From a bacterium (GTDB taxonomy: Bacteria; Patescibacteriota; Minisyncoccia; JBBINA01), in the NCBI GenBank assembly GCA_037444125.1, contig JBBINA010000005.1:1-63698 (forward strand): 63,698 nucleotides of DNA, read 5' to 3'. The notes below the pieces were generated by a model. It saw nothing but the letters and a program-made list of their open reading frames with translations, was not told the DNA's origin and searched no databases. Both the position numbers and the translations under genes were made by a program. Below, piece by piece: positions 25,845-62,955 of this stretch. The first letter of the stretch is position 1. Each line of letters starts with the position of its first letter.

Positions 25845-26606
25845 CTAGTGTTCGACAATTAATCTTAACAAATATATTATGATTACACCGACTAGAATTA
25901 AAACAAAAGGAGTAATTATATTTTTTGAAGGTAAATCTTTTTTTATTTCAGGAATTAAATCAGAAGCCGCTATAAACAGAAAGCCACCGCCGGCTATAGC
26001 TAGCATATAATTGGGCAAAAACTCCACATTTTTTAAAACAAAGTATCCGCTAATACAACCAAGCAAGCTAAAAAGAGCGGTTATAAAATTATAAAATATA
26101 GCTTTTGTCCAGCTTAATCCTGTAGTTCTTAAAATTGAAAAATCGCTTATTTCCTGTGGTATTTCGTGAAAGATAACCGAAATGCTTAAGAGAATGCCTA
26201 TTTTTATATTAACTAAGAAAGCGATGGCTATTACAATGCCATCAATAAAATTGTGTAAAGAATCTGCCAAGAGAATTATTTTAGCTCTAGGTAATATACA
26301 ATCCTTACATTTAATATCGTGATGATGGTGATGCCAAGTAAATCCGCGTTCAAGAGCAAAGAATAGCAAGAATCCTAGTAGAATTATTTTGCTATATATG
26401 TTTATTTGTTCACTATTTTCAATAAATAACTCAGGTAATATATCAAGAAAAAAAACGCCTAGCAATGTACCGGTGGCAAAAGAAATCAGAAACCTCCCAT
26501 ATTTTTTAAGATTTTCACTGGTAGTATTTTTGAAAATAAGACCAGCGATTAGAGAAGGCAAAGAAATTAATAAACTAAAAAAAATAATTAGGGATAATGT
26601 TGGCAT
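25845..26606 (-). CDS. ZIP-family divalent metal (Zn) transporter
   Basis: His-rich loop HHHHHD, ADSLHNFIDG, HEIPQEISDF and ASDLIPE. Confidence 0.9.
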   Translation of the reverse strand: MPTLSLIIFFSLLISLPSLIAGLIFKNTTSENLKKYGRFLISFATGTLLGVFFLDILPELFIENSEQINIYSKIILLGFLLFFALERGFTWHHHHHDIKCKDCILPRAKIILLADSLHNFIDGIVIAIAFLVNIKIGILLSISVIFHEIPQEISDFSILRTTGLSWTKAIFYNFITALFSLLGCISGYFVLKNVEFLPNYMLAIAGGGFLFIAASDLIPEIKKDLPSKNIITPFVLILVGVIIIYLLRLIVEH

Positions 26607-33462: not shown

Positions 33463-33589
33463 AGATAAAATTTTTAAATATCTCTTAAGATAAGTTATTT
33501 ACGCTAGCCTATATTATATGAATGGTTCAGATTAAATACAAGACACTAGTTGAATTTTGATAATTTTAAATAAAACAAAGCAAAAAAAA

Positions 33590-34201
33590 TTAAGCAAAAT
33601 AGTTTAGGTCTTTTAATTTTAAGATTAAATTGTTAACCGCTTGGTGTCGATGGTTACATTTTAGATGTTCATTTTTGTTTAAATCCTGATATAGTTTGTT
33701 AAATTTGTCCACTATGAATAAGCAGCGGAAGGGGTAGCCGGGAGTTTTTAAAGGAGAGGCATTTAGGGCTATATGTCCTTGAATAGAAGCTTCAGAAAAT
33801 ATTTTTATGTTTTTATCTTTGTCTAAAAAGCAAATTACTACTCGTAACTTGCAAGTGCGTTTTTCAAAAGGCACGTTTTTTAATTTTGTTAAAGTGTAAT
33901 TAATAAGTTCTTCATCGTTTACCTCATAACCTGGCCATCGTCTTGATTTTGCCCCGGGCTCGCCATTTAAAAAATCAATTTCTATGCCGCCATCATCAGC
34001 CAAAACCGGCATATCAACTTTATCAATATAAAAACTTGCTTTAACAAAAGCATTGTCAAAAAAATTTTGACCATTTTCTTTTGGTTCTGTTTTGAAATCG
34101 AAATCTTTGGGAGACAAGATTTTGTCAAAAAAATTTTTGAGCAAAGTTTGATATTCGGCTAATTTACCTTGATTATTGGTGGCAATAAAAAGATATTTCA
34201 T
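33590..34201 (-). CDS. rdgB: Non-canonical purine NTP pyrophosphatase (Ham1/RdgB)
   Basis: ATNNQGK, E.G..F.DNA..KA, ADDGG, GEPG..S.RW and NHR motifs. Confidence 0.88.
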   Translation of the reverse strand: MKYLFIATNNQGKLAEYQTLLKNFFDKILSPKDFDFKTEPKENGQNFFDNAFVKASFYIDKVDMPVLADDGGIEIDFLNGEPGAKSRRWPGYEVNDEELINYTLTKLKNVPFEKRTCKLRVVICFLDKDKNIKIFSEASIQGHIALNASPLKTPGYPFRCLFIVDKFNKLYQDLNKNEHLKCNHRHQAVNNLILKLKDLNYFA

Positions 34202-35097
34202 TAAAAAAAATTACGTCGTTTAAAAATGTAAAACATAAATATAGCCACGATTAGCATTATATTAATAACAATCAAAAAATCGCCCGGCGCGCCGATAAAA
34301 GGCATTGATTTTGTTCGCATTGAAAAAATAGCCGCAATAAGCGTTAGTGGGAAAGTAAAAACAGCTATAATGGTCAAAATTTTTATTATCTCATTTGTTT
34401 TAATAGTTAAAATATTTTGCGCCGACATTTCTGCCGAATCAATTATTTCTTTATAATTTTTGATGTAAATAACCACTTCGTCAAATAGGGTTTTTAAGTG
34501 GTCGAAAAACGGCGCTTTAGTTGAATCATAAAAAACCTTTACTTTATTAATAAATTTCTCAAAAGTTATTTTTTGCGGTTCAATGATTTTTATAAAATCT
34601 AGAACATCGCGTTTGATAAGCGATATGTATTTAATTGTTTGAGTAGTTGGATTAGTTAGTTGATCGTTTATATTATCTATGTCAGCCTTAATATGAGTTA
34701 ATTCTCGTTGTAAAAACTCCAGATTAATTTTGATTAAATTATATAAAAATTCAGGTAAATTTATTTCAGAAAAATATTGCTCAAAACTCTTATTCAAAAA
34801 TTCTTCAATTGGTTCAAGTTTATCGTAAGATATTGTAAGCAGTCTGTTTTTATTAATAATAAAATCTATTTCTTGCGGGTAAACTGTTTTTTTTATTTCG
34901 CTATATATAGGTATTTCTAATACTATATATAGGTAGTCATTGTATTCTTCAAATTTTGCACGTGAGGACGGGGATTCAAGTTCGCGCAAATGAGCTTGAT
35001 GGATGTCAAAATGTTTTTTAATAAACTGAAAGTCTTCTAAATGAGGCTTAACAATATAAAACCATGTAAAAGTTTTGAATCCGAAGACTTGGCGCAT
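34201..35097 (-). CDS. corA: CorA-family Mg2+ transporter
   Basis: RAKFEEYNDYLY, NEIIKILTI, then two C-terminal TM helices. The GMN signature appears as SMR. Confidence 0.8.
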   Translation of the reverse strand: MRQVFGFKTFTWFYIVKPHLEDFQFIKKHFDIHQAHLRELESPSSRAKFEEYNDYLYIVLEIPIYSEIKKTVYPQEIDFIINKNRLLTISYDKLEPIEEFLNKSFEQYFSEINLPEFLYNLIKINLEFLQRELTHIKADIDNINDQLTNPTTQTIKYISLIKRDVLDFIKIIEPQKITFEKFINKVKVFYDSTKAPFFDHLKTLFDEVVIYIKNYKEIIDSAEMSAQNILTIKTNEIIKILTIIAVFTFPLTLIAAIFSMRTKSMPFIGAPGDFLIVINIMLIVAIFMFYIFKRRNFF

Positions 35098-35529: not shown

Positions 35530-37359
35530 ATGAAAAAAATATTGAAAATTATTTTAGTTGCCGTTTTAGTTTTAGGGATTTCGAGAATTTTAAAAGCCAG
35601 CACTATTTTTAATTTTGATATTGAACAAATATCAGAGTTTGAAAATAGAGATTTGGTTAATGAAATAAAAAATAATGTTAACAACTTTCAGATTTATCGA
35701 GATGACAGGTTAATTGTCAAACTAAAAAACGAACATAATTTTCGTACTTTATCACTTTCACAAGGCATAAAAGTTTCAGAGGCTATTAATTCCTTGAGGC
35801 AAAATCCGGAGATTGAGTATGTTGAGCCGGATTATTATGCTTATGCTCAGTTCATACCTAACGATCCATATTATAAATATCAGTGGAACTTTAATAATAA
35901 TGTTTATGGCGGAATAAATCTTGAGTCAGCTTGGGATTTGGCTCAGGGACAAAGCGTTGTTATCGCTGTAATTGACACGGGTGTAGCTTATGAAAATTAC
36001 AATAGTTTTCGGCAGGCTCCTGATTTGGTTAATACCCAATTTGTTGCCGGTTACGATTTTATTGAAAACGATTTTCATCCAAATGATGACAATGGCCATG
36101 GCACTCATGTCGTTGGAACTATTGCCCAGTCAACTAATAATAAACTTGGCGTAGCCGGAGTTGCTTATATGGCTAAAATAATGCCTATAAAAGCTTTAGA
36201 CAGAAAAGGTATTGGTTCTTATTCAGCCATTGCTAACGCCATACGTTATGCCGCTGATAATGGTGCACATATTATTAATTTGTCTTTAGGTGGACCAAGC
36301 CATTCGCAGGCATTATTGGATGCTGTCAGGTATGCTTATAGTAAAGGAGTATTTATAGTGGCAGCCGCAGGAAATGATGGCAAGGAAGTTATGTCATATC
36401 CTGCCGCTTATGATGAGTATGTAATGTCTGTTGGAGCAACCCGTTTTGACGAAAGACTTTCTTATTATTCAAATTACGGTTCATCTTTAGATATAGTTGC
36501 GCCGGGAGGCGATCTTAAGGTGGACCAAAATAATGATGGTTATGGCGACGGAATTTTACAGCAGACAATAGCGTCAAATAATCCCAGAAAATTTGGTTAT
36601 TATTTTTATCAGGGGACCTCAATGGCTACGCCGCATGTCGCTGGTGTGGCAGGGTTAATCAGGTCATTAGGGATTTCATCGCCTCAGCAAATTAGGGATA
36701 TTCTAATAGGTAAAGCTAAAGATTTGGGCGAGCCTGGGTTTGACAAATATTATGGTTATGGCAGATTAGACGCTGCTGCCAGTATAAATGAAGTTTTAAG
36801 ATTAGTTAATATAACTACGCAAAATTCTCAGCCGAATTTACAGCTTGAAACAACTAACCAAACGAATTTCTTAGATTCTAATACTTCCGAGAATAGTGGT
36901 AAAAATTTTATCTCAAAGATTTCAATTACTGACATATATGTGTCAAATTTTGATGCAGGCCGTCGCGTTCGAGTAGGTTTTCGGCTAGAAAATGGCAATA
37001 GAGAAGCTGTAACTTTATTAGCCAAGGGGCAGATTTTAGATGAGGATAATAACTTAGTTTCTTGGGGAAATTTTGAGGATATGACCTTAATAATTTCAGG
37101 TAATCGTTCAAAAATAGCATGGTTTGAGAGACTATTTATACCAGAAAATATTGATACGCGTAATTATATTCTTGAAATAATTTTAGTTGATGAATCAGGA
37201 AATAGTGTCAAAACCTCTAAAGATCTTGCTTATCAGGGGACTCGTTTCAAAATTAAAAATTTTATTTCTGATTCCATTTTGACAAAATTTAATAAGCAAG
37301 TAAAAAATATATTGACAAATTCTGAAAGTGTAATAGAATTACTAAACAAAAAAATTTGA
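35530..37359 (+). CDS. Secreted S8 (subtilisin-family) serine protease with prodomain and C-terminal Ig-like domain
   Basis: Signal peptide; catalytic triad motifs VIDTG, HGTHV and GTSMATPHVAG; oxyanion AAAGN. Confidence 0.95.
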   Translation: MKKILKIILVAVLVLGISRILKASTIFNFDIEQISEFENRDLVNEIKNNVNNFQIYRDDRLIVKLKNEHNFRTLSLSQGIKVSEAINSLRQNPEIEYVEPDYYAYAQFIPNDPYYKYQWNFNNNVYGGINLESAWDLAQGQSVVIAVIDTGVAYENYNSFRQAPDLVNTQFVAGYDFIENDFHPNDDNGHGTHVVGTIAQSTNNKLGVAGVAYMAKIMPIKALDRKGIGSYSAIANAIRYAADNGAHIINLSLGGPSHSQALLDAVRYAYSKGVFIVAAAGNDGKEVMSYPAAYDEYVMSVGATRFDERLSYYSNYGSSLDIVAPGGDLKVDQNNDGYGDGILQQTIASNNPRKFGYYFYQGTSMATPHVAGVAGLIRSLGISSPQQIRDILIGKAKDLGEPGFDKYYGYGRLDAAASINEVLRLVNITTQNSQPNLQLETTNQTNFLDSNTSENSGKNFISKISITDIYVSNFDAGRRVRVGFRLENGNREAVTLLAKGQILDEDNNLVSWGNFEDMTLIISGNRSKIAWFERLFIPENIDTRNYILEIILVDESGNSVKTSKDLAYQGTRFKIKNFISDSILTKFNKQVKNILTNSESVIELLNKKI

Positions 37360-37516: not shown

Positions 37517-37550
37517 AAACCTGCATTTTTTTAAAAAATGCAGGTTTTTA
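37517..37550 (+). terminator. Palindromic hairpin after the S8 gene
   Basis: AAACCTGCATTTTT...AAAAATGCAGGTTT followed by T residues. Confidence 0.6.
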
Positions 37551-37689
37551 AATTTTTAAAGTGTTTTTTAACATAATTAATATTAATATCTAAATATTAA
37601 GAAGGTCGGTCTGTCAGCGGCAGACATAAGAATGTGCAAAGTTCATATTTTATTCAGACGCACATTCAAATGAAAGGAGGTGAAAAAAA

Positions 37690-38628
37690 ATGAAAAAATT
37701 AATAGCAGTATTCGTCGCAGTTGCCACTTTGGGTGTTTACGGCTTTGCCGCTGCTCACCCAGATGTGACTTTTGTGGTTTCCAACAGTAACAATGCTAAC
37801 GTTATAAATACTTTAGGATCTCTTTCTACTACTGGCAACAACTTAATTACCGCTGATCAAGATGTAGAGGATGGCGAAATTACTACTGGCAATGCCGAGA
37901 CTGAAGGCACAGTTTCAAATGATATTAACCAAAACTCGGCTGGCATGGACGTTTATGCTGGTTCCGATGTATCTGTAGCTATTAGCAATGAAAATAATGC
38001 CACTGTAAATAATACTGAACTATTGGCAGCTGAAACAGGTGAAAACGAAATTTCAGCTGACCAAGATGTTGGTAGTGGCAGAATCACTACAGGCAATGCC
38101 AAGGCTACAGGTAAAATTGGTAGCGTAAGTGGTATTAATCTTAATGTGGCGGAGTTGCAGATTGGTGATCCTGCTTCTTCTTGCGATGACTGCACTGGCG
38201 TTGATGATGTAAGTGTCTCAATTGAAAATAACAACGAAGCAAATTTAGAGAATATCGTTGTTCCTGTCGGTGATACAGGCGAAAACTTGATTACCGCTGA
38301 ACAAGATGTCGGTTCTTGCGATAGTTGTGGTTCAGGCGAAGCTACTATTGATACTGGCGATGCTGAAGCTAATGGTGAAATTGAGAATGATGTTAATCAA
38401 AATCAAGCTCAAGGTGGCATTTACGGCTCCAGTGATGTCATGGCCGTCGTAACTAACGGTAATGACGACCTTCAGTCGAATACCGTCACGCCAGTAGCTA
38501 ATTCCGGCACTAATGAAATTTCAGCTACACAGGATGTCTCTGGTTCAACCATTACGACTGGTTTAGCCAAAACCACATTGAAAATCATTAACCGCAAGAA
38601 TATCAGCATAACAGATTTCGACTTCTAA
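37690..38628 (+). CDS. Secreted four-repeat N/T/G/D-rich protein, paralog A1 (predicted beta-solenoid)
   Basis: Sec signal MKKLIAV...GFAAA; four ~65-80-aa repeats; CDDC and CDSC loops; RBS GAAAGGAGGTG. Confidence 0.85.
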   Translation: MKKLIAVFVAVATLGVYGFAAAHPDVTFVVSNSNNANVINTLGSLSTTGNNLITADQDVEDGEITTGNAETEGTVSNDINQNSAGMDVYAGSDVSVAISNENNATVNNTELLAAETGENEISADQDVGSGRITTGNAKATGKIGSVSGINLNVAELQIGDPASSCDDCTGVDDVSVSIENNNEANLENIVVPVGDTGENLITAEQDVGSCDSCGSGEATIDTGDAEANGEIENDVNQNQAQGGIYGSSDVMAVVTNGNDDLQSNTVTPVANSGTNEISATQDVSGSTITTGLAKTTLKIINRKNISITDFDF

Positions 38629-38649
38629 AAAGATTTGAAAGCTATTTCC

Positions 38650-38696
38650 CGGGATCCTGCACCTTCATTACAAATAAGAAGGTGCAGGGAATCCCG
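38650..38696 (+). promoter_or_regulatory. Intercistronic stem-loop between A1 and A2
   Basis: GGGAT-CCTGCACCTTC-(11 nt)-GAAGGTGCAGG-ga-ATCCC; no U-tract. Confidence 0.65.
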
Positions 38697-38751
38697 AAGG
38701 GACAAAATTCATAGGCATTAAAAATAATTTTTTCGAAAGGAGGTGAAAAAA

Positions 38752-39690
38752 ATGAAAAAATTAATAGCAGTATTCGTCGCAGTTGCCACTTTGGGTGTTT
38801 ACGGCTTTGCCGCTGCTCACCCAGATGTGACTTTTGTGGTTACAAACAATAACAACGCGCTGGTGACTAATTCGTTAACAAGCTTAGCAACTACTGGCGA
38901 CAACACTATTTCAGCTGATCAGGATGTGGAAGACGGCGAAATAAGCACTGGCAATGCCGAGACTGAAGGCACAGTTGAAAATGATATTAACCAAAACGCG
39001 GCTCAAATGGAGGTTAATGCCGGCTCAGATGTAACGGCATTGGTTAGCAACACAAATGACGCTTTAGTTACTAACGACGAAACTTTAGCGGCAGATTCAG
39101 GCGAAAATGAAATTACAGCCGAGCAGGATGTAGCCGGAGGTATCATAACTACAGGCAATGCCAAAGCTACAGGTAAAATTGGTAGTTTAACTGGCATAAA
39201 TATTAATGTAGCTAGTTTCATTATTGGTGATCCTACTTCTTCTTGCGATGACTGCACTGGCGTTGATGATGTAACTATAGAGGTTGATAATAGAAACGGC
39301 GCTTCTGTTGAAAATGGAATATTAAGCGATGCTGAAACAGGCGAGAACGAAATTGCGGCTGAGCAAGATGTTGATGGATGTAGTTCCTGCGGTGGCGGCG
39401 GCGCTTTGATTGATACGGGTGACGCCACAGCTGAAGGTGAAATAAAAAATGATGAAAATCAAAATGAAACTACGGGTAGTGTCTTTGCTTCAGGCGATGT
39501 AGATGTTGCGGTAGGTAATAATAATCTAGTTTTTGATTTTAATTCAGTTATTCCAGTAGCCGACACGGGTGCCAACGAAATCAGCGCCAGCGAAGATGTT
39601 AGTGATTCAACAATATCTACTGGTTTTGCAAAAACATTGCTTAAGGTGTTCAACCGCAAGAACATTAGCATAACTGAGTTTGAGTTTTAA
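38752..39690 (+). CDS. Secreted four-repeat protein, paralog A2
   Basis: Same signal peptide, repeat register and CxxC loops (CDDC, CSSC) as A1. The track start at 38743 lies inside the RBS, so ATG at 38752 is used. Confidence 0.85.
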   Translation: MKKLIAVFVAVATLGVYGFAAAHPDVTFVVTNNNNALVTNSLTSLATTGDNTISADQDVEDGEISTGNAETEGTVENDINQNAAQMEVNAGSDVTALVSNTNDALVTNDETLAADSGENEITAEQDVAGGIITTGNAKATGKIGSLTGININVASFIIGDPTSSCDDCTGVDDVTIEVDNRNGASVENGILSDAETGENEIAAEQDVDGCSSCGGGGALIDTGDATAEGEIKNDENQNETTGSVFASGDVDVAVGNNNLVFDFNSVIPVADTGANEISASEDVSDSTISTGFAKTLLKVFNRKNISITEFEF

Positions 39691-39706
39691 GCCAGATTAA
39701 TTTTTA

Positions 39707-39754
39707 TAGGAAGAGGTGCAAGCCTGAATTAAAAGGTTATGTTGCCTCTTCCTA
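39707..39754 (+). promoter_or_regulatory. Intercistronic stem-loop after A2
   Basis: TAGGAAGAGG(T)GCAA...TTGCCTCTTCCTA inverted repeat. Confidence 0.65.
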
Positions 39755-39821
39755 AAGGAGGGGAAAAAAATAAAAAAATATTTTAAAGGTATATTAAAGT
39801 ATAAACGTTAAAAATTATAAA

Positions 39822-40316
39822 ATGCGTTTGTCATCAAAAATTAGAAGGGTAAGTTTGTTTACGATGTTTTTTCTGTTCTTGAGTAGTATTGTCGCGGCAA
39901 AAAGCGTTGTTAATAATGATGTTTTTGTTTCTAGCAATAGTGGCGGCAATACTCTTAAAAACGGCAGAGTCATCGAAGGAAAAGAATTAAACAAAGTTGA
40001 GATTAATACGACTATAGACGGCAAAAAATTAGAGCCAATATCATTTACTCAAACGCAAGATAATAAAAAAATTATTGAAAAAAAGATTGATTATGTTTCG
40101 GAAGATGGTTCTGTTCAAGTGAAAAATTCTGTTAAAAGCGAAATTGGTCAAACAGAGTTTTTTCAGGGCAATAATTTTTTTGAGAGGAAAAACCTGCAAA
40201 TTACAGAAATTGAAGTTAAAAAGAGTCTTATAGAACAATTAAAAAATTCAGTTGCTAATTATTTCGGGTCAATAAGATTAGTTTTAAATGTTTTATTTAA
40301 TAATCTTGTTAGATAA
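39822..40316 (+). CDS. Secreted hypothetical protein
   Basis: Signal peptide ending IVAA; VFVSSNSGGN echoes the A/N-x-T/S-G-x-N repeat motif. Confidence 0.7.
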   Translation: MRLSSKIRRVSLFTMFFLFLSSIVAAKSVVNNDVFVSSNSGGNTLKNGRVIEGKELNKVEINTTIDGKKLEPISFTQTQDNKKIIEKKIDYVSEDGSVQVKNSVKSEIGQTEFFQGNNFFERKNLQITEIEVKKSLIEQLKNSVANYFGSIRLVLNVLFNNLVR

Positions 40317-43300
40317 GGTGAGAAAATTTGTTATTTTGTTTTATGCTTTATGGATAGCATTTAATCCGGTAGTTTTGGTTTTTGCTCAAACTGCTAGCAC
40401 TACTGACATCACCGCCCAGTTGCAACAACAAATTATTTCACAAGTTCAAACACAGACTGCTTCTTTGCCAACTTCAAATTCTATCGTTACTAATCAAAAA
40501 AGTTCAAATGTTAATAGTCAAATTAATAATCAGATAAGTGATGAGTTGGCTAAAATTGAACAAACTCAGCAAGAAGTTCCGATTGAAACTCAACAAAAAG
40601 TAGATGAAGCCTCAAAAGAGGCCGCTAGCAAATTAAACGATAAAAACGCCACAGGTAATAACACTAGCGATAATGAAGCGAATAATAATAACCAATTGCC
40701 GTCTTATGCCTATGATGGACCGATAAATCAAAGTTCAGAAAGTGCTAATTCCAATACCCAAGTTCAAAATTCCAATAATGAAAATGTTAGCACCGTACCT
40801 TCGCCAATGGATAGCGATAACGCTCAAATCTTAACTAACGCCAATATTGATCCAGTGCAGACTTCAGTTGGCGATGTACAGATTTCTGGATCAGTTCAAA
40901 CTGGCAATAATGATGGATCAGTTAAAGTTCAAACCGGTAATGTCAAGATTCAAGGCGAGGTCTTCAATCAAGCCAATACCAATACTGTCAGCGTAAACCA
41001 AACTCATCACAGCAATACTTTGGTAGAAAATAAAAACAAAAATCTTGTGGTTAATCTTTTTGATTATTTTGGCAGTTCAGGGCAAAACACAATTGAAAAA
41101 AATGACGGCCGAGCTGAAATTGATACCGGTAATGTTGATATTAGGCTTAATCTTTTGAATTTAACTAATACTAATATTACTAATTCAACCTGGGGTCAAT
41201 ATTTCTATAATTCCGAAGTTCCTTTAAATCAGGATATTAATATTGAAGAAGCTTGGCATAAAGCCGCGCATGATGATTGCAAATTTGGCGAGTGTGCCGG
41301 TGAATTCAAGGTGGTTAATATGAATGAGTCAACGGTGCAAAATAAGGTTAAGGTGCTGGGGATTTCAGGACAAAATAAAATTAAGGATGCTGACGGTGAT
41401 GGCATAATTAGAACAGGCGATGTCAGAGTGGCTACAAATTTAATTAACTTTTTGAATACTAATCTTACAGGTTCAGAGTGGGATTTAAGCGTTATTAATT
41501 TATTTGATGATTGGAAGGGGGATCTTATTTTGCCCGGCAAGCAAAAATACGATAGCAACAAAAAGAACTACAAGCTTTTCCCCAATACAGTTATTGATAA
41601 TAAAAACGATGTTTTGGTGTCTAATGAAATAGTTCTTGACGCTAATACCGGCAATAACCTAATTGATAATAATGACGGTGTTTCGAAAATAAAGACCGGC
41701 GATGCCCTGACTAAATCCAATATTCAAAATGTCATTAACGCTAATTTTCAAGGCGGAGATTGGTTTCTGGTGATTATTAATCGCTTTAATAACTGGGAAG
41801 GCAAAATTTTTAATAAGCCAACTGAAATTGGGGAACTAGTTCAAGACAAAAGTTTGATTTTTTCGTCATTTTTATCCGACGAAATGCTAAAAAATTTGTA
41901 TCATAATGACGATGAAGCTATTTTGTCAGTTACTAATAATAATCTCGGTGAACTTCGTAATGAAATTCTTATACAAGCTATGACAGGTGGCAATGAAATC
42001 CAGGGAAATGATGGGGATGCTGTTATAGAGACAGGCAAGGCGTTAATTCTGGCAAATGTTTTAAATATAGCTAATGTTTCAATTGCTGGCGGCGATTGGC
42101 ACTTGGCGGTTATTAATGTATTTGGCGATTGGCATGGTAATATTTTCTTTGGTAAACCCGACCTTAAAGTAACAGTTGAGAGTAATAAAACAGAGCTGTA
42201 TCAGCCCGGAGAAATGGTTGAATTAACAGCGATTTATTCCAACACCGGTTCAGCTGACGGCGATAACGCTAATCTCACTATGAGTTATGATTCTGATAAT
42301 TTAAAGCCGCTTTCTTCCACAGATTTAACTCAAAATAAAGGAAAAATCACTTGGGACCTAGGTAAGGTGCCTCAAGGAACAACTAAAAAAATAACTCAAC
42401 GCTTTGAGTATATTGGCAAAAATCCAACAGAAACAACAGCCGAAGTTAATGTGGCAATTGCAAGTCCGGTGCCTGATCTTAATATTGCAGATAATACAAA
42501 AAGCTTAGTTTTGGTTTATAAAAATAATAAGCCAGTTCAAAATCCAAAAGAAAATTCGAATAATAATGGGCAATCGACAAATAATGATAATAACTCAAGC
42601 CAAATGAGCAATAATTCAAGCAATAATCAGCAAAGCAATTTAAACAACAATAACCAGCCAAACTCATCAAATAGTTCGTCGGGTAGTAATAATGGCTCAG
42701 TGTCCGCCACTACTAGTAATTCAATATCCAACTCAAACGCTAATAACATCAGCGGTAGTTTTGGCGGTACCTCAAGTTCCGTTTTACAAGGACCAGTTGA
42801 AATTAGTAAATCCAACTCAACTAAAGGTTCAGTTAAACCAGGAGAGACGGTTAGTTATGTCATCAGAGTTAAAAACATTTCTGTAAGTAATATATATGGT
42901 TTAGTTATTACTGATACGATGAAAAATAGCGCTGGTACTATTATTACTTCTGACCGTTGGGAATTTGAAGAAGTAAAGTCAAACAAAGGTTTTGAAATTA
43001 AATACGATGTCACTATTTCTAATGAAACTCCTTCAGGCATATATACTAACTATGCCAAAATTGAAGGTTTTGATTCTCGTGGTGTAAAATTCACGGCTGC
43101 GGCCCAAAGCGTTATAACAGTGGCAAACGAAACATTATTAATGACTACTCTTCAAAACCAAAATCAAACAAATCTTCAACAAGCTATGATGACAACGCCA
43201 GTTATTAAATCAGATATTCCTGCGGAAAGTTTAATCATTAACAATCAAAAACCTTCAAAAATCCAATATCATCAAAACCTTGCCTATGAAAATACTAACC

Positions 43301-43620
43301 TTTTGCCTAGCAACATAAACAGCGTAGTTAGGAGGGTTAAAGAAACTCTTGGCAAGGTGGCTAATTTTGATTCTCCCAAACCGACGAAATTAGCGAATGG
43401 GACAAATGCTACTTTTACTCCACGGTTTATTAAGAAGGATAGTTTTTATGAAGAAAATGCAAGTGAAGGTATGTTGTTAGCTTCTGGTTTATTAGATAAA
43501 TTGACTAATAATTACCCAAAAATTTTAATCTTATTTGTCGTTATAGTTTATATATCAACATTCCTAAATTTTGGAGTAATATATGAAGGACGAGCTACCA
43601 AAAATCGAAAACGGAAATAA
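40288..43620 (+). CDS. Large membrane-anchored surface protein: Q/N-rich N-terminus, five A1-like repeats, two DUF11-like Ig domains, N/S-rich linker, C-terminal TM helix
   Basis: Repeats of the form G-x-N...I-x-TG[ND]...N-x-x-N-T-N; PDLKVT...PGEMVELTAIYSNTG and VEISKS...PGETVSYVIRVKN; hydrophobic ILILFVVIVYISTFL then RATKNRKRK. Alternative GTG start at 40318. Confidence 0.8.
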   Translation: MFYLIILLDKVRKFVILFYALWIAFNPVVLVFAQTASTTDITAQLQQQIISQVQTQTASLPTSNSIVTNQKSSNVNSQINNQISDELAKIEQTQQEVPIETQQKVDEASKEAASKLNDKNATGNNTSDNEANNNNQLPSYAYDGPINQSSESANSNTQVQNSNNENVSTVPSPMDSDNAQILTNANIDPVQTSVGDVQISGSVQTGNNDGSVKVQTGNVKIQGEVFNQANTNTVSVNQTHHSNTLVENKNKNLVVNLFDYFGSSGQNTIEKNDGRAEIDTGNVDIRLNLLNLTNTNITNSTWGQYFYNSEVPLNQDINIEEAWHKAAHDDCKFGECAGEFKVVNMNESTVQNKVKVLGISGQNKIKDADGDGIIRTGDVRVATNLINFLNTNLTGSEWDLSVINLFDDWKGDLILPGKQKYDSNKKNYKLFPNTVIDNKNDVLVSNEIVLDANTGNNLIDNNDGVSKIKTGDALTKSNIQNVINANFQGGDWFLVIINRFNNWEGKIFNKPTEIGELVQDKSLIFSSFLSDEMLKNLYHNDDEAILSVTNNNLGELRNEILIQAMTGGNEIQGNDGDAVIETGKALILANVLNIANVSIAGGDWHLAVINVFGDWHGNIFFGKPDLKVTVESNKTELYQPGEMVELTAIYSNTGSADGDNANLTMSYDSDNLKPLSSTDLTQNKGKITWDLGKVPQGTTKKITQRFEYIGKNPTETTAEVNVAIASPVPDLNIADNTKSLVLVYKNNKPVQNPKENSNNNGQSTNNDNNSSQMSNNSSNNQQSNLNNNNQPNSSNSSSGSNNGSVSATTSNSISNSNANNISGSFGGTSSSVLQGPVEISKSNSTKGSVKPGETVSYVIRVKNISVSNIYGLVITDTMKNSAGTIITSDRWEFEEVKSNKGFEIKYDVTISNETPSGIYTNYAKIEGFDSRGVKFTAAAQSVITVANETLLMTTLQNQNQTNLQQAMMTTPVIKSDIPAESLIINNQKPSKIQYHQNLAYENTNLLPSNINSVVRRVKETLGKVANFDSPKPTKLANGTNATFTPRFIKKDSFYEENASEGMLLASGLLDKLTNNYPKILILFVVIVYISTFLNFGVIYEGRATKNRKRK

Positions 43621-44470
43621 ATTAACAGTTTTATTTAACAGGCTTACATCTTTTGCTATTATTGTTTTAGTTTTTTTTATAATTGGCGGGTCAATTTTGG
43701 CTATATCTAATAGTCGAGATTTAAAAATAAAAGCTAATATAAATCCAGCTATACAAGTTTCGTCCGGAGAAATTAATTTTAATGACTTAACTTCGGGTCA
43801 AACCAGCACTCAGGAAATTGAGATTAAATTAAGCGACATTTTTAATGAAACCCAGCCGGTAAAATCAGTACATTATGTTATTCATAAATTTAACCAACCC
43901 AAAAATTCGCAAGACCTTACTTATTGCCAGAAAACGACTAATTTTCCTGATATTAGAAATTGGAGCAATTATTCAGCTGAAGATTGGCAGGATTTTATTG
44001 ATTCAGCCTATTTTGAAAAATGCAACTTATCGCTTTGCCCCTTTATTTCTATTAAAAAGTCAACTAATGAGATGTCAGAAAACGGAGCTTTATTTGCGGC
44101 TCGTCCTCAGGTAGTCCAAAATGATTCTGGTTTTTTAGATGTTTTTGTTGAAAACAATGTTCAGAATAGAGACCCCAGTTCTATATTGACAGATACTAGA
44201 AAAAGTGATAAATTTGACTATGGAGTTGATGCCTTTAATTATCCAAAAATAATAGATAATACTTTTGAGTTTACAAAAGCCAAAGGATATTTGGAGAAAA
44301 ATACGGATTCTAGCGATAAATGGCTTGTAACTTTAGAAGCGCCCTGTTTTAAAAATGACTCAAACTGCAATGCAAGGTACAAGGAACTTTTTGACAAGAT
44401 ACCCAACGAACTGGCTAATCAGAATTGGGGTTGCTCGATTTGGTACGAAATAATCAATATTGAAAGATAA
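43583..44470 (+). CDS. Exported Cys-containing protein, TasA-like/Ig-like subunit candidate
   Basis: N-terminal hydrophobic helix; KIKANI strand, EINFNDLTSG, LCPF, DKWLVTLEAPC and WGCSIWYEI. Confidence 0.65.
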   Translation: MKDELPKIENGNKLTVLFNRLTSFAIIVLVFFIIGGSILAISNSRDLKIKANINPAIQVSSGEINFNDLTSGQTSTQEIEIKLSDIFNETQPVKSVHYVIHKFNQPKNSQDLTYCQKTTNFPDIRNWSNYSAEDWQDFIDSAYFEKCNLSLCPFISIKKSTNEMSENGALFAARPQVVQNDSGFLDVFVENNVQNRDPSSILTDTRKSDKFDYGVDAFNYPKIIDNTFEFTKAKGYLEKNTDSSDKWLVTLEAPCFKNDSNCNARYKELFDKIPNELANQNWGCSIWYEIINIER

Positions 44471-44895
44471 TGAATTTTTTTAAAGGCAAAACAGAAAAGA
44501 AACTGTTTTGGACAGGAATTATTGTTTTTATAATTGTTTTTATTGTTATTGTCATTTCAAGACAAGTGAGTTTTGATATTTATGTAACAGTAATACCCTC
44601 AAAAAATGTTTTAGAAGTTAATTTTGATTCTCATCACATTAATTTCGGAGTTGTTAGCCCTGGATTTGTTGCGCATAAATATATTGATCTTAAGAACGAT
44701 TCTAAATTGACTAATGTTTTTTACATAAAAATTAAAGGCGAGATTGCCAGTTGGCTAAAAACTGATAATAGTCTTTTTGCCGTGAAACCTGAATCATCAA
44801 GACAAATACAACTTACCTTATCAGTTCCTAAAATAGTAAAATTTGGGACTTATAAAGGCGTGATAAGGCTTTATAATTTTTATACTATTTTTTAA
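44470..44895 (+). CDS. Small exported Ig-like protein
   Basis: TM/signal segment, then HINFGVVSPG...IDLKN...VKPESSRQIQLTLSVP...GTYKGVIRL; TAATG coupling on both sides. Confidence 0.7.
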   Translation: MNFFKGKTEKKLFWTGIIVFIIVFIVIVISRQVSFDIYVTVIPSKNVLEVNFDSHHINFGVVSPGFVAHKYIDLKNDSKLTNVFYIKIKGEIASWLKTDNSLFAVKPESSRQIQLTLSVPKIVKFGTYKGVIRLYNFYTIF

Positions 44896-46154
44896 TGCGC
44901 GGTTTTTTTACACGCAAAATAAGCTTATGTTTAGTTATGGCAGTAATAGCTGTTTTGATATGGCCTAGTAAAATTTTGGGTTTTGAAGCTTATCAGGTTA
45001 GAATAAACGCGGTACTTCGGCCTCAAGACCAGATATCTCCTCCGCCCCAACAGCAATGCGAAACAGTTGTTTTAGAAGGCAATATGAATATTGCTAGTAT
45101 GACTTTTAGAAATAAAAGTGTTATTTTAAAAACTGGCAGCGTTTTAGTTCCTAAGCTGTCAAATATTAATCTTTATGTGGGATGCGATTTTATAATTGAA
45201 AGAGGCGCTTCAATTGATGTCAACAATGCCCAAGATGGTTTTATCCGTTTGATAATAGGACAGAATTTAATTTTAAATGGTAAAATTTTAGCTAAATCCA
45301 ACGGTACACCTTCGTCTGTTCGAATTTCAACTGGAGCAGACGCTCTTATTAACGGCGAAATTGATAGCTCAGGTTCTGCTTCTGCCGGTATGATAAGAAT
45401 TGATAGCAACAGAAAACTTGTAATAAATTCTCAAAGCATTAGAGCTAATTCATTAGACGGCACAGCCGGAGAAATTAGACTTAATGTACTTGATGATTTA
45501 GAAATTAATGGGAAATTGGAAGCTAAAGGTATTAATATTAATGCTTCAGGTGGTTCTATAAGAGCTGTTGTTGAGGGCAAAGTAGCTATTGCTGGCGTTA
45601 TAGATGTATCAGGCAATCAAAAAGGCGGCAGTATTAGAATTTCTGCTGAAAAAAACATTAATTTAGAAAACAGTGGTCAAATTAATTTTTCTTCTCAAAA
45701 TGGTAATGGCGGTATAGTTATAATCAATACGGGTAAAGATTTAGAAATTAAAGGTTCTTTGATTGGCGATGGTTTAAGGTCTGGAGGGTCGTTTATAGCT
45801 ACAATTGATAAAGACTCTTTAATCACGGGTATTATAACGGCAAACGCTTTTGATCCTAGTTCAGGAGAAGGCGGTGTTATTGGTTTAAATGCTAGTAATG
45901 GAAATCTAATAATTTCAGGCAAGCTTGAGGCTAAAGGCAAAACAAAAAACGGATCAATTAATTTAACTTACTGTTCTAAAAATTTTTCGGGCGCTCAATT
46001 TAATCCTTTACCCTCAGAAGTTGATAATTGTCCTAATATTCAAAGTTTAACAACTGAAAATTCGCTTTATACTCCAATTCAAACTAATACATTTTTTATG
46101 AGCCAAATTGACAGCCCTTTGCTGAATTATTTTAATATTTTTATAAAAAAATAA
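44895..46154 (+). CDS. Secreted Gly-rich beta-helix (adhesin-like) protein
   Basis: Signal peptide, then FEAYQVRINAV, then about 8 repeats of the form GG-x-I-x-I-x-A-x-x-D/N-L-x-I-x-G-x-I-x-A. Confidence 0.7.
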   Translation: MRGFFTRKISLCLVMAVIAVLIWPSKILGFEAYQVRINAVLRPQDQISPPPQQQCETVVLEGNMNIASMTFRNKSVILKTGSVLVPKLSNINLYVGCDFIIERGASIDVNNAQDGFIRLIIGQNLILNGKILAKSNGTPSSVRISTGADALINGEIDSSGSASAGMIRIDSNRKLVINSQSIRANSLDGTAGEIRLNVLDDLEINGKLEAKGININASGGSIRAVVEGKVAIAGVIDVSGNQKGGSIRISAEKNINLENSGQINFSSQNGNGGIVIINTGKDLEIKGSLIGDGLRSGGSFIATIDKDSLITGIITANAFDPSSGEGGVIGLNASNGNLIISGKLEAKGKTKNGSINLTYCSKNFSGAQFNPLPSEVDNCPNIQSLTTENSLYTPIQTNTFFMSQIDSPLLNYFNIFIKK

Positions 46155-46156
46155 TT

Positions 46157-47470
46157 ATGCCAAAATTTGCTATGGTAATAAAATTAATCTTGTTTTTTAT
46201 GCTTATTTCGGTAAGCAGAATTTTTGCTCAAGATATTTCAATTTTTACGATTTCCACAGACCTTATTGATTTGAGCAATATTTTTGCTGGAGAAAAATTT
46301 ACAAGGACTTTTAGGGTTAGTCTTGACCCTGCAGTTACAAATAAAATTCTAAATTATAAAATAATCCGTCCAACAAATAGCCCCTTCTGCAATAGCATTT
46401 TATTTAAACCGGAAGAGCAAAATGATGCCATTAATTCCAGTTTTTTAAGTGCGTCTAGCGACAGAGAAGATATTTGGGAATTAGTTATAGAAGTTCCGGA
46501 ACTTGAAAATAGTACTTTGGCCAGTAATAAGACAATGATTTCTGCCGGTAATTATGAGTGTAATATTCAGGTTGAAGCAATTTCAGTGCAAGATGAGACT
46601 AGCCAACCATCGCCGCCAAGTAATGGTAGTGGAGGTGGTAGTGCGCCAGGCAATGATGTTAACGTTCCCTCGCAGCCACAAGGTCAAAGCGGTTCTGGAG
46701 GAGGCGGTTTCTTAATAGTTTCTCAACAAACGCAACAAAAAGGCGAAGACTTTCAAACTAATGCGTTTGGTCTAGTCGTAGATAATGTTCCTCCTAAAAT
46801 CACACCCCCAACTGAAGATTTATTTCTTATTAATGAATCTTTTAAGATTAAAGAGATTGGCAGCGATTATATCATTATTATGTTTAACACATCGCTGCCT
46901 TTGTATGTAAAGGTTGTTTATGATGTGAAAAGCCATGACCCAATTGAATCCGATAAAAAAAATTATGGTTATGCCTCCTCGACGGAAGAAACAACTAGCA
47001 GTGGTTCATTTTTTGAAATAAAGTTAGTTGGTTTAAATCCCGACACTGCTTATTATTTTAGAATTGTGATGAGAAATCTTAACTTGATAAAGCCAAGCAA
47101 AGAGTTTTATGTGAAGACTTTAACCGCGAGAAAGACTCCCGAAGTAGCTAAACAAACGGTTACCGCAACAACGACGCAGCCAAGAGGTGATAAAGAAGAA
47201 GGACAAGAGCAAGAAGCTAACGGGCTAACACCAAAATTTTTCAGCTTAGCCAATCTGAAAAGTTTTTTAAGCAACTTGCCAGTGGAAATGTGGTTAATAA
47301 TAATTTTGGCTTTAATTTTGATAATAGATTATATAAGACGAAAAGTTATCCAACGGATTAAAAAATTGAAAAAGCATTCACTATTTACAAGATTAAAAAA
47401 ATACTTTATAGTGTTAATATTTCTGTTGTTAGGTAAAAAAAAGAAAAAGGGTAACAGATTTAATTCTTAA
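46157..47470 (+). CDS. Surface protein: TasA-like N-domain, G/S/P linker, Fn3-like domain, C-terminal TM anchor
   Basis: IDLSNIFAGEKFTRTFRVSL...DIWELVIEVP...YECNIQVE resembles the 43583 protein; GLNPDTAYYFRIV (Fn3); WLIIILALILIIDY then a basic tail. Confidence 0.7.
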   Translation: MPKFAMVIKLILFFMLISVSRIFAQDISIFTISTDLIDLSNIFAGEKFTRTFRVSLDPAVTNKILNYKIIRPTNSPFCNSILFKPEEQNDAINSSFLSASSDREDIWELVIEVPELENSTLASNKTMISAGNYECNIQVEAISVQDETSQPSPPSNGSGGGSAPGNDVNVPSQPQGQSGSGGGGFLIVSQQTQQKGEDFQTNAFGLVVDNVPPKITPPTEDLFLINESFKIKEIGSDYIIIMFNTSLPLYVKVVYDVKSHDPIESDKKNYGYASSTEETTSSGSFFEIKLVGLNPDTAYYFRIVMRNLNLIKPSKEFYVKTLTARKTPEVAKQTVTATTTQPRGDKEEGQEQEANGLTPKFFSLANLKSFLSNLPVEMWLIIILALILIIDYIRRKVIQRIKKLKKHSLFTRLKKYFIVLIFLLLGKKKKKGNRFNS

Positions 47471-47478
47471 AAATTATT

Positions 47479-48525
47479 ATGTTAAATAAAGCCAAAAAAC
47501 TTTCTATTTTATTAAGTTTTTTAGCTATTTCTGTTGGGATAGGGTTATCTTTTAAAAGTTTAGTCGGGGCGCAAGATAAGCTAACTATCGAGCAATTTCT
47601 TGTGCGCGAAACTGAAGCAGGTGCTTTGAGTGGGATTTCTCTTGAATTTATTGTTAAAGCTTGCGATAAACGCGATTCTTCGATTGCAGCAACATTAAAT
47701 TATGGCGATGGCTCAATCGATACATTTAGTATTCGTTGTGGTGAAAGTATATCTAAAATTCATACCTATAACTCTAGCGGTCGTAATATTATTACTCTTA
47801 AGGTTAAGAATGCCTTTGGAGAGGAGTTGAGGCGACAACTTGAGGTTGATGTTAGAAACTTTCCGCCGGTTATTCGCGAATTTGGATTAAATCCATTGAG
47901 CAATTTGGCGGCTAATCAAATGGTGTTGTTTGATATTTCTGTTTGCGATTCGGCTAAAGACGTTATAAAAGCGCGGTTGTTGCCGGGTGACGGTCGGGAA
48001 ATAGTTATTGATCCTAGCTGTGGTTTAAGCACTTACTCGGTTATTTATACTGCCAATGGCACTTATACAGCTAAAATTATAGCTGAAGACTCTAATAACC
48101 AAAGAAGCGAAAAATCGTTGAATGTGACTATTGGCGGAGTGGCTACAACCATTCCTATTATTCCGCCAGCGCCATCTGATTTAAGGAGAAAATTAGTGCG
48201 CACCAATGAAAATGGCCCAATTTATTATATAACTGAAATATTAAGAAAAAGAAAAATACCTAATATGGATGTTTTTCATTCTTATGGTAATAAACTTTCT
48301 GATGTTATCTTAATTTCGGAGTCAACTTTGCAATTATTTCCTGATGTTAAATTAATTCATTTAGATAATGAAATGCCTTTTCGCGTTTTTTTGTTAGAAA
48401 ACAATGTTAAACGGTGGATTACCACTTTTGAAGCCTTAAAGCGTTTAGGTATGGAAAATGAACCAGTAGCGCCGGTAAACTTAACTGAGTTTATTACCTA
48501 TCCAACCGGACAACCTATTTTTTGA
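47479..48525 (+). CDS. Secreted protein with two PKD-like domains and a C-terminal surface repeat domain
   Basis: LNYGDGS...HTYNSSG and LLPGDGR...YTANGTYTA (PKD); IYYIT...KRKIPNMDVFHSYG and VFLLENNVKRWITT..YPTG repeats. Confidence 0.75.
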   Translation: MLNKAKKLSILLSFLAISVGIGLSFKSLVGAQDKLTIEQFLVRETEAGALSGISLEFIVKACDKRDSSIAATLNYGDGSIDTFSIRCGESISKIHTYNSSGRNIITLKVKNAFGEELRRQLEVDVRNFPPVIREFGLNPLSNLAANQMVLFDISVCDSAKDVIKARLLPGDGREIVIDPSCGLSTYSVIYTANGTYTAKIIAEDSNNQRSEKSLNVTIGGVATTIPIIPPAPSDLRRKLVRTNENGPIYYITEILRKRKIPNMDVFHSYGNKLSDVILISESTLQLFPDVKLIHLDNEMPFRVFLLENNVKRWITTFEALKRLGMENEPVAPVNLTEFITYPTGQPIF

Positions 48526-56421: not shown

Positions 56422-56862
56422 TTATCGTACATAACCATAAATCATCGCTACAATTAAAACCGCGGCGATACTAAGAATTAACACTATTTGAACTGAAGGA
56501 TCGATTTTGGAAAAATCAATTGTATGAACGACTACTGTTGACGGCACCATAATCCATCTTTCAACGATTAGATATTCAATACCTGAATATGTAACCGCCT
56601 TTACCATCACATAATATTGACCAGGCGCGGGATAAACATGCGGTAAGCGAAGTTCGCGAGTTCTTTTAATAGTTCCATCTCCAAAATGCCATATGTATTC
56701 TTTGACTTCATAAAAAACTTGGGTTTGTCGAATTTCAAACCAAATTGTATTTGAACCTGATGCGTGCCAAAACAAACTAGTTTGTGTTTGCGAAAAGCCT
56801 TCTTTGTTGGGTGTAATAAGTATACTCGCTACAGCTATGACTAGCCATAACAAATTTTTCAT
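56422..56862 (-). CDS. Single-PKD-domain surface protein with a C-terminal TM helix
   Basis: YIWHFGDG...HVYPAPGQYYV; signal peptide; C-terminal hydrophobic helix; AAGGAG RBS. Confidence 0.85.
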   Translation of the reverse strand: MKNLLWLVIAVASILITPNKEGFSQTQTSLFWHASGSNTIWFEIRQTQVFYEVKEYIWHFGDGTIKRTRELRLPHVYPAPGQYYVMVKAVTYSGIEYLIVERWIMVPSTVVVHTIDFSKIDPSVQIVLILSIAAVLIVAMIYGYVR

Positions 56863-56876
56863 CTGAAATCATCTCC

Positions 56877-57623: not shown

Positions 57624-57691
57624 CGTGTATCCCCCCTTGGATACAAAGGTTCATTTATATCTTAACACACTAAAGTTATAAAGTCAAATTT

Positions 57692-61723: not shown

Positions 61724-61777
61724 GTTTTTAAATATTCAAAAATTCAAATTAGTTTTTCGCTATTGCTATTACTTTTA

Positions 61778-62815: not shown

Positions 62816-62955
62816 ATTTATTTTTTAATATTTAATAATTAATTTATATTTTATATTATATCGAAATATTTTATTTTAAAATTTTACTTATCTATAATAA
62901 AATTGCAATATAATAAATTGTGGATAACTTTTAGAGGCCGCACCTGCAAAAAATT

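Follow-up and report, generated by a model that had tools for sequence, protein, structure and literature searches.

Which proteins form the cell surface of Patescibacteria (candidate phyla radiation, CPR), a vast and largely uncultured section of bacterial diversity whose envelope is almost uncharacterised at the protein level? The question is raised by a stretch of 63,698 nucleotides (nt) from an uncultured, ultra-small patescibacterium, assembly GCA_037444125.1 (contig JBBINA010000005.1; in the following, the window), which carries two adjacent genes for secreted repeat proteins, here termed A1 and A2:

37690..38628, + strand: A1, a secreted protein of 312 amino acids (aa) with four repeats (open reading frame (ORF), repeat profile, AlphaFold2 model)
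38752..39690, + strand: A2, a 312-aa paralogue of A1 with the same architecture (ORF, alignment, repeat profile)

We propose, with about even confidence, that A1 and A2 serve as the major subunits of an assembly on the cell surface, which is tethered and probably templated by the repeats of an anchored stalk protein.

In both proteins, a Sec-type signal peptide read from the sequence (aa 1-22, MKKLIAVFVAVATLGVYGFAAA|HPD; MKK, a hydrophobic core and cleavage at AAA|HP) precedes four repeats of 64-80 aa (aa 25-92, 93-172, 173-248 and 249-312), which share pairwise identities of 36-49%. Smith-Waterman alignment of the two halves of each protein gave scores of z = 20-22 over composition-preserving shuffles. 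Tandem Repeats Finder detected no repeat at the DNA level within either gene; the repeats are therefore old. The mature proteins (~290 aa, about 29.5 kDa) contain 46-53 D/E versus 7-8 K/R and end in ISITDFDF and ISITEFEF, respectively. As the repeats span aa 25-312, A1 and A2 are without an additional domain or anchor; correspondingly, neither an LPXTG motif nor a transmembrane segment nor an extra domain was found in the sequences or with the repeat profile. The proteins had been described from sequence alone as secreted, strongly acidic, ending in [DE]F[DE]F and lacking both cap and anchor, and this description is borne out by ORFs, sequence and repeat profile.

A1 and A2 are 68% identical at the protein and 71% identical at the DNA level. 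The ratio of nonsynonymous to synonymous substitution rates (dN/dS) is 0.27 between the two and 0.20 against the orthologue of locus L001, and both copies are thus under purifying selection. The ORF listing places the start of A2 at a GTG at 38743, which falls within the consensus Shine-Dalgarno sequence GAAAGGAGGTGAAAAAAATG. Because this GTG lies inside a Shine-Dalgarno AGGAGGTG, the true start is the ATG at 38752, from which A2 comprises 312 aa and begins with MKKLIAVFVAV... as A1 does.

The first 30 codons of the two genes, which encode the signal peptide and the beginning of repeat 1, agree at every nucleotide (100%; 37690-37779 in A1, 38752-38841 in A2), with 52-86% DNA identity per 30-codon window elsewhere. 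This suggests gene conversion or a strong constraint on the 5' ends. Both genes also contain an antisense ORF (93 aa, 37953-38234, - strand; 141 aa, 39003-39428, - strand); these are most likely by-products of the codon composition of the repeats and not genes.

A1 and A2 have no match in Pfam, NCBIfam or PHROGs (Pfam hits at E <= 1 were just noise, META and TcaA), and a profile search of the PDB sequences at E up to 10 returned zero matches. A word-indexed search covering 5.8 billion proteins identified one close orthologue (P0003, 65% identity), three relatives at 31-34% (P0004-6) and distant proteins of 410-448 aa. When 1.84 billion cluster representatives were searched exhaustively with HMMER, 263 clusters were found at E < 0.001, only 4 of them below 1e-30, which shows that the A-type subfamily is rare and the repeat itself widespread. 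No relative was found when 185,579 species genomes were scanned with the A profile; representative genomes therefore either lack the subfamily or contain it in too diverged a form. A 64-column repeat profile, built iteratively from A1 and run on 162 retrieved proteins, found 573 repeats (529 distinct); A1 and A2 each match it four times (E 1e-14 to 1e-19). Three architectures occur: two-repeat proteins of about 150-230 aa (63 proteins), four-repeat proteins of 300-450 aa, and proteins of 750-1200 aa with 4-6 repeats and a C-terminal membrane anchor. In total, family members carry 2 to 9 repeats, a variability expected of an open-ended stack; the two-repeat relatives (63 among those listed) would have too few repeats for a stand-alone stack.

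The four-repeat consensus of the sequence-only reading proved correct and extends to the 529 distinct repeat instances, over which it reads V.N.N.A.V.N.V...ANTG.N.I......G...I.TGDA.A...V.N.VNTN. The most conserved profile positions are N10 (95%), N16 (91%), G25 (100%), N27 (99%), T42 (90%), G43 (98%), N53 (80%), N56 (99%) and N58 (80%), and A1 and A2 fit the family-defining N10, N16, G25, N27, T42, G43 and N56. Six buried Asn per repeat are conserved to 57-99% across the family; the odd, outward columns are variable and polar, with the commonest residue at <= 24%. A search with the repeat profile had been put forward as a way to map the taxonomic range of the proteins. The few members of the 263 clusters that bear a source name are all hypothetical proteins of 'Patescibacteria group bacterium'. 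The ClpB encoded in the window is 52-59% identical to its best 80 species-genome matches, which are mostly named Patescibacteria, the remainder carrying generic or other labels. One orthologue, P0006, is encoded on contig L007 (IMG 3300010938), which carries the full gene cluster and originates from the core metagenome of the Fe- and Si-rich Chocolate Pots hot spring (PMC6137239); orthologues are also present in the samples SRR27730020-25. We found no description of the repeat family in Patescibacteria in the literature. The family to which A1 and A2 belong is restricted to one lineage, has no name and consists of secreted structural proteins with beta-repeats, whose predicted fold is without a solved counterpart; the 64-column profile can be used at once for its annotation.

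The repeat also occurs in an anchored protein, which is encoded two genes downstream of A2:

40288..43620, + strand: surface protein of 1110 aa, repeats at aa 204-601 (nt 40897..42090; E 1e-11 to 1e-15)

This protein comprises a signal peptide, a Q/N-rich region, 4.5 A-type repeats, each followed by a Trp-containing extension, a stalk and, as read from its C-terminal sequence, a transmembrane helix with a basic tail. AlphaFold2 modelled its repeat domain (aa 190-640) as all-beta with an A-like strand pattern (predicted local distance difference test (pLDDT) 75.9, predicted template-modelling score (pTM) 0.77), for which Foldseek returned no significant neighbour in the PDB. Homologues of the 1110-aa protein possess DUF11, CLIPPER_2 and CARDB domains, CLIPPER being a domain from a survey of intramolecular isopeptide bonds. 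The repeat profile was applied to five loci, and each of them encodes a free four-repeat protein and, just downstream, a protein with 4-6 repeats that ends in a transmembrane helix and a basic tail. The five loci include the distant 410-aa branch (L008, L011), and two of them encode further small anchored repeat proteins; the window shows the same pairing. No other independent evidence argues as strongly for a joint function of free and anchored repeat proteins as this recurrent pairing.

The distant 410-aa relatives (L008 1853-3112 and 6110-6829; L011 7176-8483) end in W-E-M-P-E-(F/V)-D-F-N-F-N followed by a short hydrophobic tail, and a sortase is encoded three genes downstream in L008. The F-D-F of these proteins recalls the ITDFDF of A1 and may be part of a sorting or processing signal that is truncated in the A subfamily.

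The regions around A1 and A2 contain several signals that bear on their expression:

37517..37547, + strand: terminator-like hairpin with T-run in the gap between the upstream protease gene and A1 (14-bp stem; -17.8 kcal/mol, z = -4.7)
37675..37682, + strand: consensus Shine-Dalgarno AGGAGGTG, 7 nt upstream of the A1 start (read from the sequence)
38647..38702, + strand: strong stem-loop 3' of A1 (-31.7 kcal/mol, z = -6.3)
39701..39760, + strand: strong stem-loop 3' of A2 (-25.7 kcal/mol, z = -4.8)

A1 and A2 each have their own consensus Shine-Dalgarno, and the layout of these sites and the stem-loops appears typical for a major subunit made in excess over the products of the downstream genes.

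Between the terminator and its start codon, A1 has a leader of ~140 nt (37548-37689) with the inverted repeats GTCTG..CAGAC and AATGTGC..GCACATT; an Rfam search of leaders and intergenic regions gave no match. Past the stem-loop of A2, at 39755-39780, the sequence AAAGGAGGGGAAAAAAATAAAAAAAT nearly matches the A1/A2 leader plus start, AAAGGAGGTGAAAAAAAATGAAAAAAT, with ATA in place of ATG, and resembles a leftover 5' end from another tandem A copy. It is located ~50 nt 5' of a gene for a 164-aa protein that has no obvious Shine-Dalgarno.

How might such repeats fold? AlphaFold2 modelled A1 (alignment of 13 sequences, five models) with a mean pLDDT of 82.9 and a pTM of 0.67; three of the five models exceeded 80 and the other two scored 63.9 and 47.7. 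The model is all-beta, with strands from residue 26 through 311 and without helices. Each modelled repeat begins with a strand of 17-25 residues, which breaks at the first T-G and is followed by strands of 5 and 8; after a second break at the second T-G come strands of 9 + 8 residues, or a single one of ~20, and a 2-residue link to the next repeat. Foldseek comparison with the PDB gave no significant match (best E = 0.016, template-modelling (TM) score <= 0.13), and the same applied to a viral structure library. All 50 PDB neighbours listed, none of them significant, are parallel beta-helices, solenoids or cross-beta amyloids, among them FapC (rank 1), SufB/D, MpAFP, tapirin, SRRP, CsgA, Ag43, ice-binding proteins, tailspikes and RTX proteins; the top-ranked, likewise non-significant neighbours in the viral library are 'parallel beta-helix repeat' and 'curlin associated' proteins. 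The TM score of 0.05 to CsgA and the 17-25-residue strands argue against a conventional rung of 18-25 residues. The uncapped beta-solenoid predicted by the sequence-only reading is thus supported in part. The all-beta, cap-less model and the solenoid and amyloid neighbours agree with it, and no capping element appeared in the structure prediction that had been suggested as a check, but none of the neighbours is significant and the rung is not the narrow one of curli or Fap.

Covariation provided a second view of the fold. Within single repeats (mean-field direct-coupling analysis of the 529 repeats), the signal was weak and the top pairs were gap-driven. The best non-gap pairs (22-45, 18-51, 14-55, 12-55, 25-43, 27-42 and 21-46) lie on an antidiagonal, i+j = 67-69, which holds ~8 of the top 45 pairs versus an estimated 2-3 by chance; therefore, each repeat appears to be one long hairpin or arch. 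In such an arch, the first long strand would lie opposite the last strands, with the two T-G motifs opposed and the variable loop columns 32-37 as the tip. The conserved alternate positions are small (V, N, N, A, V, N, V, A on one arm; A, A, V, N, V, N on the other), which suits a tight two-layer core with stacked Asn. Paired repeats showed a strong in-register signal, which is confounded by shared ancestry, and no antidiagonal between repeats. This leans towards a stack of the repeats but is not decisive.

The antidiagonal would fit a hydrogen-bonded hairpin equally well as a face-to-face arch. This leads to an antiparallel alternative, in which four long hairpins form an eight-stranded sheet, which either dimerises or rolls up. 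The solenoid-like shape of the AlphaFold model would then reflect a bias of the predictor on Asn/Gly/Thr-rich repeats; even so, a self-associating sheet would be left. Every link between strands being a turn of 2-3 residues, the lack of a significant solenoid match and the two poor AlphaFold models are in line with such a fold. However, none of the 50 listed neighbours is an antiparallel sheet or barrel, and the hairpins of neighbouring repeats show no antidiagonal covariation. The junction between repeats has a family-wide median of 36 aa, unusual for a meander, and we regard the antiparallel fold as unlikely.

Taken as a stack, the repeats suggest how the proposed surface assembly may be built. 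A1 and A2 would be made abundantly and secreted by the Sec pathway, with the signal peptide being cleaved. Each repeat of ~70 residues would then form one long beta-arch that bends at the two invariant Thr-Gly motifs, with strand a facing d/e and strand b facing c, and four arches would stack in register into a flat cross-beta block with wide rungs and a core of stacked Asn, Ala and Val. As there is no cap domain, the top and bottom rungs would be open, and their edges could be extended by strand-to-strand hydrogen bonding to further copies of A1 and A2, which would thereby polymerise. The block edges could also bind the 1110-aa protein through the 4.5 homologous repeats of its outer end; this protein would tether, and probably nucleate, the assembly as a fibre or sheet. 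Its acidic body, together with a last strand that is basic and aromatic, would provide the subunit with a polarity for head-to-tail contact, and the paired CxxC loops of A1 and A2 (see below) might act as optional stabilisers. If real, a wide-rung cross-beta stack of this kind would be a new architecture among bacterial functional amyloids and solenoids and a concrete candidate for what forms the surface layer or the appendages observed on cells of Patescibacteria.

The distribution of charges accords with such a polarity. In A1, A2, P0003-6 and P0015, 4-5 of the few K/R fall within the final 20 residues (...AKTTLKIINRKNISITDFDF), while the remainder of each protein is acidic; in P0015, all five K/R lie in this stretch, versus 97 D/E elsewhere. 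P0016, with just 2 K/R among its last 20 residues, is an exception, and the bias fails in the wider repeat family (29/76 proteins). In addition, each repeat of A1 and A2 is closer to its counterpart in the orthologue than to the adjoining repeats, so that the A protein is a fixed four-rung unit with specialised ends. These ends could serve head-to-tail contact or act as a cap at the sequence level.

Several points weigh against an assembly built by stacking. The specialised end rungs could equally be sequence-level caps that block it, and stacked, strongly acidic rungs need counter-ions. The parallel in-register arrangement would rest on the class of non-significant Foldseek neighbours; the covariation is weak and its in-register inter-repeat part confounded by common descent. 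The link between anchor and subunit is one of genetic association only.

If the ends are specialised for docking, one or a few copies of A1 and A2 might instead sit on the repeats of the stalk protein as a finite surface decoration, a defined heteromeric tip such as the head of a host-attachment adhesin, with docking or capping as the specific task of the first rung and of the basic, aromatic last strand. The individual conservation of each repeat between orthologues and the specialised end rungs would be explained in this way, as would the four repeats at which nearly all mid-size members are fixed and the conserved pairing with an anchored repeat protein. Patescibacteria are commonly epibionts, a lifestyle to which such a head would be suited. 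Against this, the expression signals indicate an excess of A1 and A2 over the product of the anchor gene, the two-repeat members and open edges favour open-ended association, and neither Pfam nor NCBIfam detected any ligand-binding-like domain in A1 or A2. We therefore consider a finite decoration somewhat unlikely and favour the open-ended, tethered assembly.

Is this assembly a variant of a known system? The defining features of the curli, Fap, TasA, RTX and ice-binding families were tested and not found in A1 and A2, which therefore stand outside all of them. The likeness to curli is the broadest. Like CsgA and CsgB, A1 and A2 are Sec-secreted, cap-less subunits made entirely of repeats, with buried Asn/Gln positions, and are predicted to form a parallel cross-beta stack; close by lies the gene of a cell-bound paralogue that contains the same repeats, reminiscent of the logic of the CsgB nucleator, although nucleation is drawn here by analogy. 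CsgA and phage 'curlin associated' proteins are also among the non-significant Foldseek neighbours. In contrast to curli, A1 and A2 have no match to Curlin_rpt (PF07012) in Pfam at E up to 1 and a strongly acidic body. Their repeats of 64-80 aa with strands of 17-25 residues are about three times longer than the curli rung of 19-23 residues, which forms a narrow two-layer solenoid, and the TM score of the A1 model to the CsgA structure 8c50 is just 0.05. Pfam identified no csgE, csgF or csgG among the genes of the A cluster, and the anchor is a type-I membrane stalk protein of 1110 aa, whereas CsgB is small.

In the Fap system (FapC/FapB, fapA-F), the secreted amyloid subunit likewise consists of repeats, and the operon also encodes a protease and a homologous protein acting as minor subunit or nucleator; the FapC fibril 9u4u is the top, non-significant PDB neighbour (E = 0.016). 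However, the TM scores are 0.08-0.13 and A1 and A2 share no sequence similarity with Fap; the A cluster encodes no FapF outer-membrane channel, and its protease is a subtilase and not a C39 peptidase as FapD. The sequence-only reading had likened A1 and A2 to CsgA and FapC; membership of either family does not hold, given the absence of a Pfam match and TM scores of 0.05 to CsgA and <= 0.13 to FapC. Pfam and NCBIfam gave no Peptidase_M73/TasA match for A1 and A2, and the cluster contains no gene for a SipW-type signal peptidase, which distinguishes them from TasA/camelysin. There was likewise no Pfam match to HemolysinCabind (GGxGxDxUx) as in RTX/beta-roll proteins and none of the DUF3494 type as in ice-binding solenoids, the latter also differing by a regular outward Thr/Asn array that A1 and A2 do not possess. 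The antifreeze protein MpAFP RIV (3p4g) shares with them the Thr-Gly-x-Asn/Asp turn, the acidity, the size of about 300 aa and the all-beta fold. It is a non-significant neighbour at 14-17% identity, with a TM score of 0.06 and a rung of 19 aa versus about 70 aa in A1 and A2.

Since 3p4g is Ca2+-dependent and at 17% the non-significant Foldseek neighbour of highest identity, A1 and A2 might also be soluble binders of cations, minerals or ice, whose acidic surface and (N/D)-T-G-(D/N) turns bind Ca2+, metals or a crystal face without building any structure. This would be compatible with their extreme acidity, with the Asp/Asn-flanked TG turns and the Asp that every A-subfamily repeat invariably carries in its central loop, and with the Fe/Si-rich hot spring as the source of one relative. 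A regular Thr/Asn face for ice or mineral binding had in fact been suggested from the sequence. The outward columns are variable (top residue <= 24%), and without a regular outward face such binding is not supported. Pfam detected no RTX, ice-binding or other calcium-binding repeat, and a soluble binder would leave the conserved pairing with the anchored paralogue unexplained; altogether, we find this explanation quite improbable.

Two pairs of cysteines are the only cysteines in A1 and in A2:

38182..38193, + strand: A1 CxxC loop 1 (C165-D-D-C168) at the junction of repeats 2/3, an insert compared to the Cys-free P0003
38317..38328, + strand: A1 CxxC loop 2 (C210-D-S-C213) in the variable central loop of repeat 3, profile columns 34-36
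39244..39255 and 39379..39390, + strand: A2 CxxC pairs C165/C168 and C210/C213

Both inserts are missing in the 65%-identical orthologue P0003 as well as in P0004-6 and P0015, while the distant A-type protein P0016 has a CxC at exactly both sites; within the A subfamily, the two sites are hence jointly present (A1, A2, P0016) or jointly absent. In the repeat family overall, cysteines occur as close pairs (CC, CxC, CxxC) in the inter-repeat junctions or the tip loop. Their number is nearly always even, and exactly two are found in 41 of the 63 two-repeat proteins. Being recurrent yet optional, the pairs cannot be essential for folding or assembly. What had been noted about the CxxC motifs, that they are the sole cysteines and placed in loops, holds for A1 and A2, but the motifs are not a constant feature of their relatives. 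The two pairs of A1, one at the base of the arch at junction 2/3 and one at the tip in repeat 3, are probably too far apart to share a site within one monomer. The idea that both loops jointly form a Zn(Cys)4 site was set aside, as these would lie at the base and the tip of the repeat in either topology. The pairs might close their own loops, bind metal or link neighbouring subunits laterally from tip to base.

Paired loop cysteines and a cross-beta envelope also recall, as an analogy only, the archaeal sheath (SH) proteins of Methanospirillum and Methanothrix, which build an envelope of cross-beta subunits with disulfide-linked units (PMC11576556). The sheath proteins belong to another domain of life, homology was not detected, and the cysteines of the A family are facultative; a report of a sheath in Patescibacteria was not found in the literature. 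It is tentatively conceivable that Patescibacteria possess an amyloid-like outer layer or fibre with rungs of ~70 residues, templating by an anchored stalk and, in some lineages, lateral cross-links by paired Cys loops located at opposite ends of the rung. If true, this would be a third, independent functional-amyloid system in bacteria and a bacterial counterpart of the archaeal amyloid sheath.

A1, A2 and the 1110-aa gene are part of a larger cluster, whose further members are:

35530..37359, + strand: secreted subtilisin-like (S8) protease, first gene of the cluster (Pfam Peptidase_S8 4e-60, fervidolysin-like pro-domain)
39822..40316, + strand: small secreted or membrane protein of 164 aa (one partial repeat at aa 29-53, E = 4e-4; orthologues in L001 and L007)
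43583..47470, + strand: genes for extracytoplasmic proteins of 295, 141, 419 and 437 aa (BLASTP, 22-76% to neighbours in L001, L005 and L007)
47479..48525, + strand: PKD-domain protein of 348 aa, last before ClpB (Pfam PKD_4 1e-8; orthologue in L001 alone)

The seven-gene order S8-A-small-big-295-419-437 is kept in L001 and L007 at 22-70% identity, with orthologues of the protease at the same position, and L005 shows the A-type order downstream of its contig end; the cluster is thus present in four lineages including the window. The 295-, 419- and 437-aa genes are common to all A-type clusters, and the 141-aa gene is matched in L001 alone. Pfam matches in the region from the 295-aa to the PKD protein are weak except for PKD itself, and the membership of the PKD protein in the cluster is uncertain.

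The adjoining protease, together with secretion and paired cysteines, would also be compatible with A1 and A2 being effectors, toxins or bacteriocin-like proteins that the protease processes. We consider this very improbable: the proteins have no enzymatic or pore-forming domain, immunity gene or leader-peptide architecture, their entire chain is a structural repeat common to anchored surface proteins, and they have no match in the phage library. In the tethered assembly that we favour, a role of the protease would likewise be conceivable, as would one of the cysteines. A phage origin was rejected, as the window is an ordinary chromosome segment whose remaining genes are housekeeping ones (tRNAs, SecDF, Fmt, TrpRS, IF3, S2, EF-Ts, ValRS, L20). 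Apart from the S8 protease and PKD domains, scans of A1, A2 and the cluster genes with Pfam, NCBIfam and PHROGs yielded just weak hints.

Some of the neighbouring proteins show features of their own. The 295-aa protein (43583-44470) has an N-terminal membrane helix and seven cysteines, so that the organism probably uses extracytoplasmic disulfides or metal sites. The 141-aa protein (44470-44895) has an N-terminal membrane helix and weak ASH/Cep192 Ig-like matches (E about 0.01-0.05), and the 419-aa protein (44895-46154) a weak DUF7305 match and Gly/Ile-rich repeats suggesting another beta-helix; either could be an assembly factor. ValRS and a CorA Mg2+ channel are encoded directly upstream of the cluster (30724-35097, - strand, in the window; 2672-6464 in L001), and a ZIP zinc transporter at 25845-26606. 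Although divalent cations may be required by the A proteins, this neighbourhood is probably plain synteny. Seven predicted surface or membrane proteins without relation to the A repeat are encoded in a second run at 56422-63528 (- strand). Among them are two PKD proteins, several proteins without Pfam match, Thr/Ser/Ala-rich proteins of 345 and 190 aa, and a protein of 335 aa that has a signal peptide and, at its C-terminus, a membrane helix.

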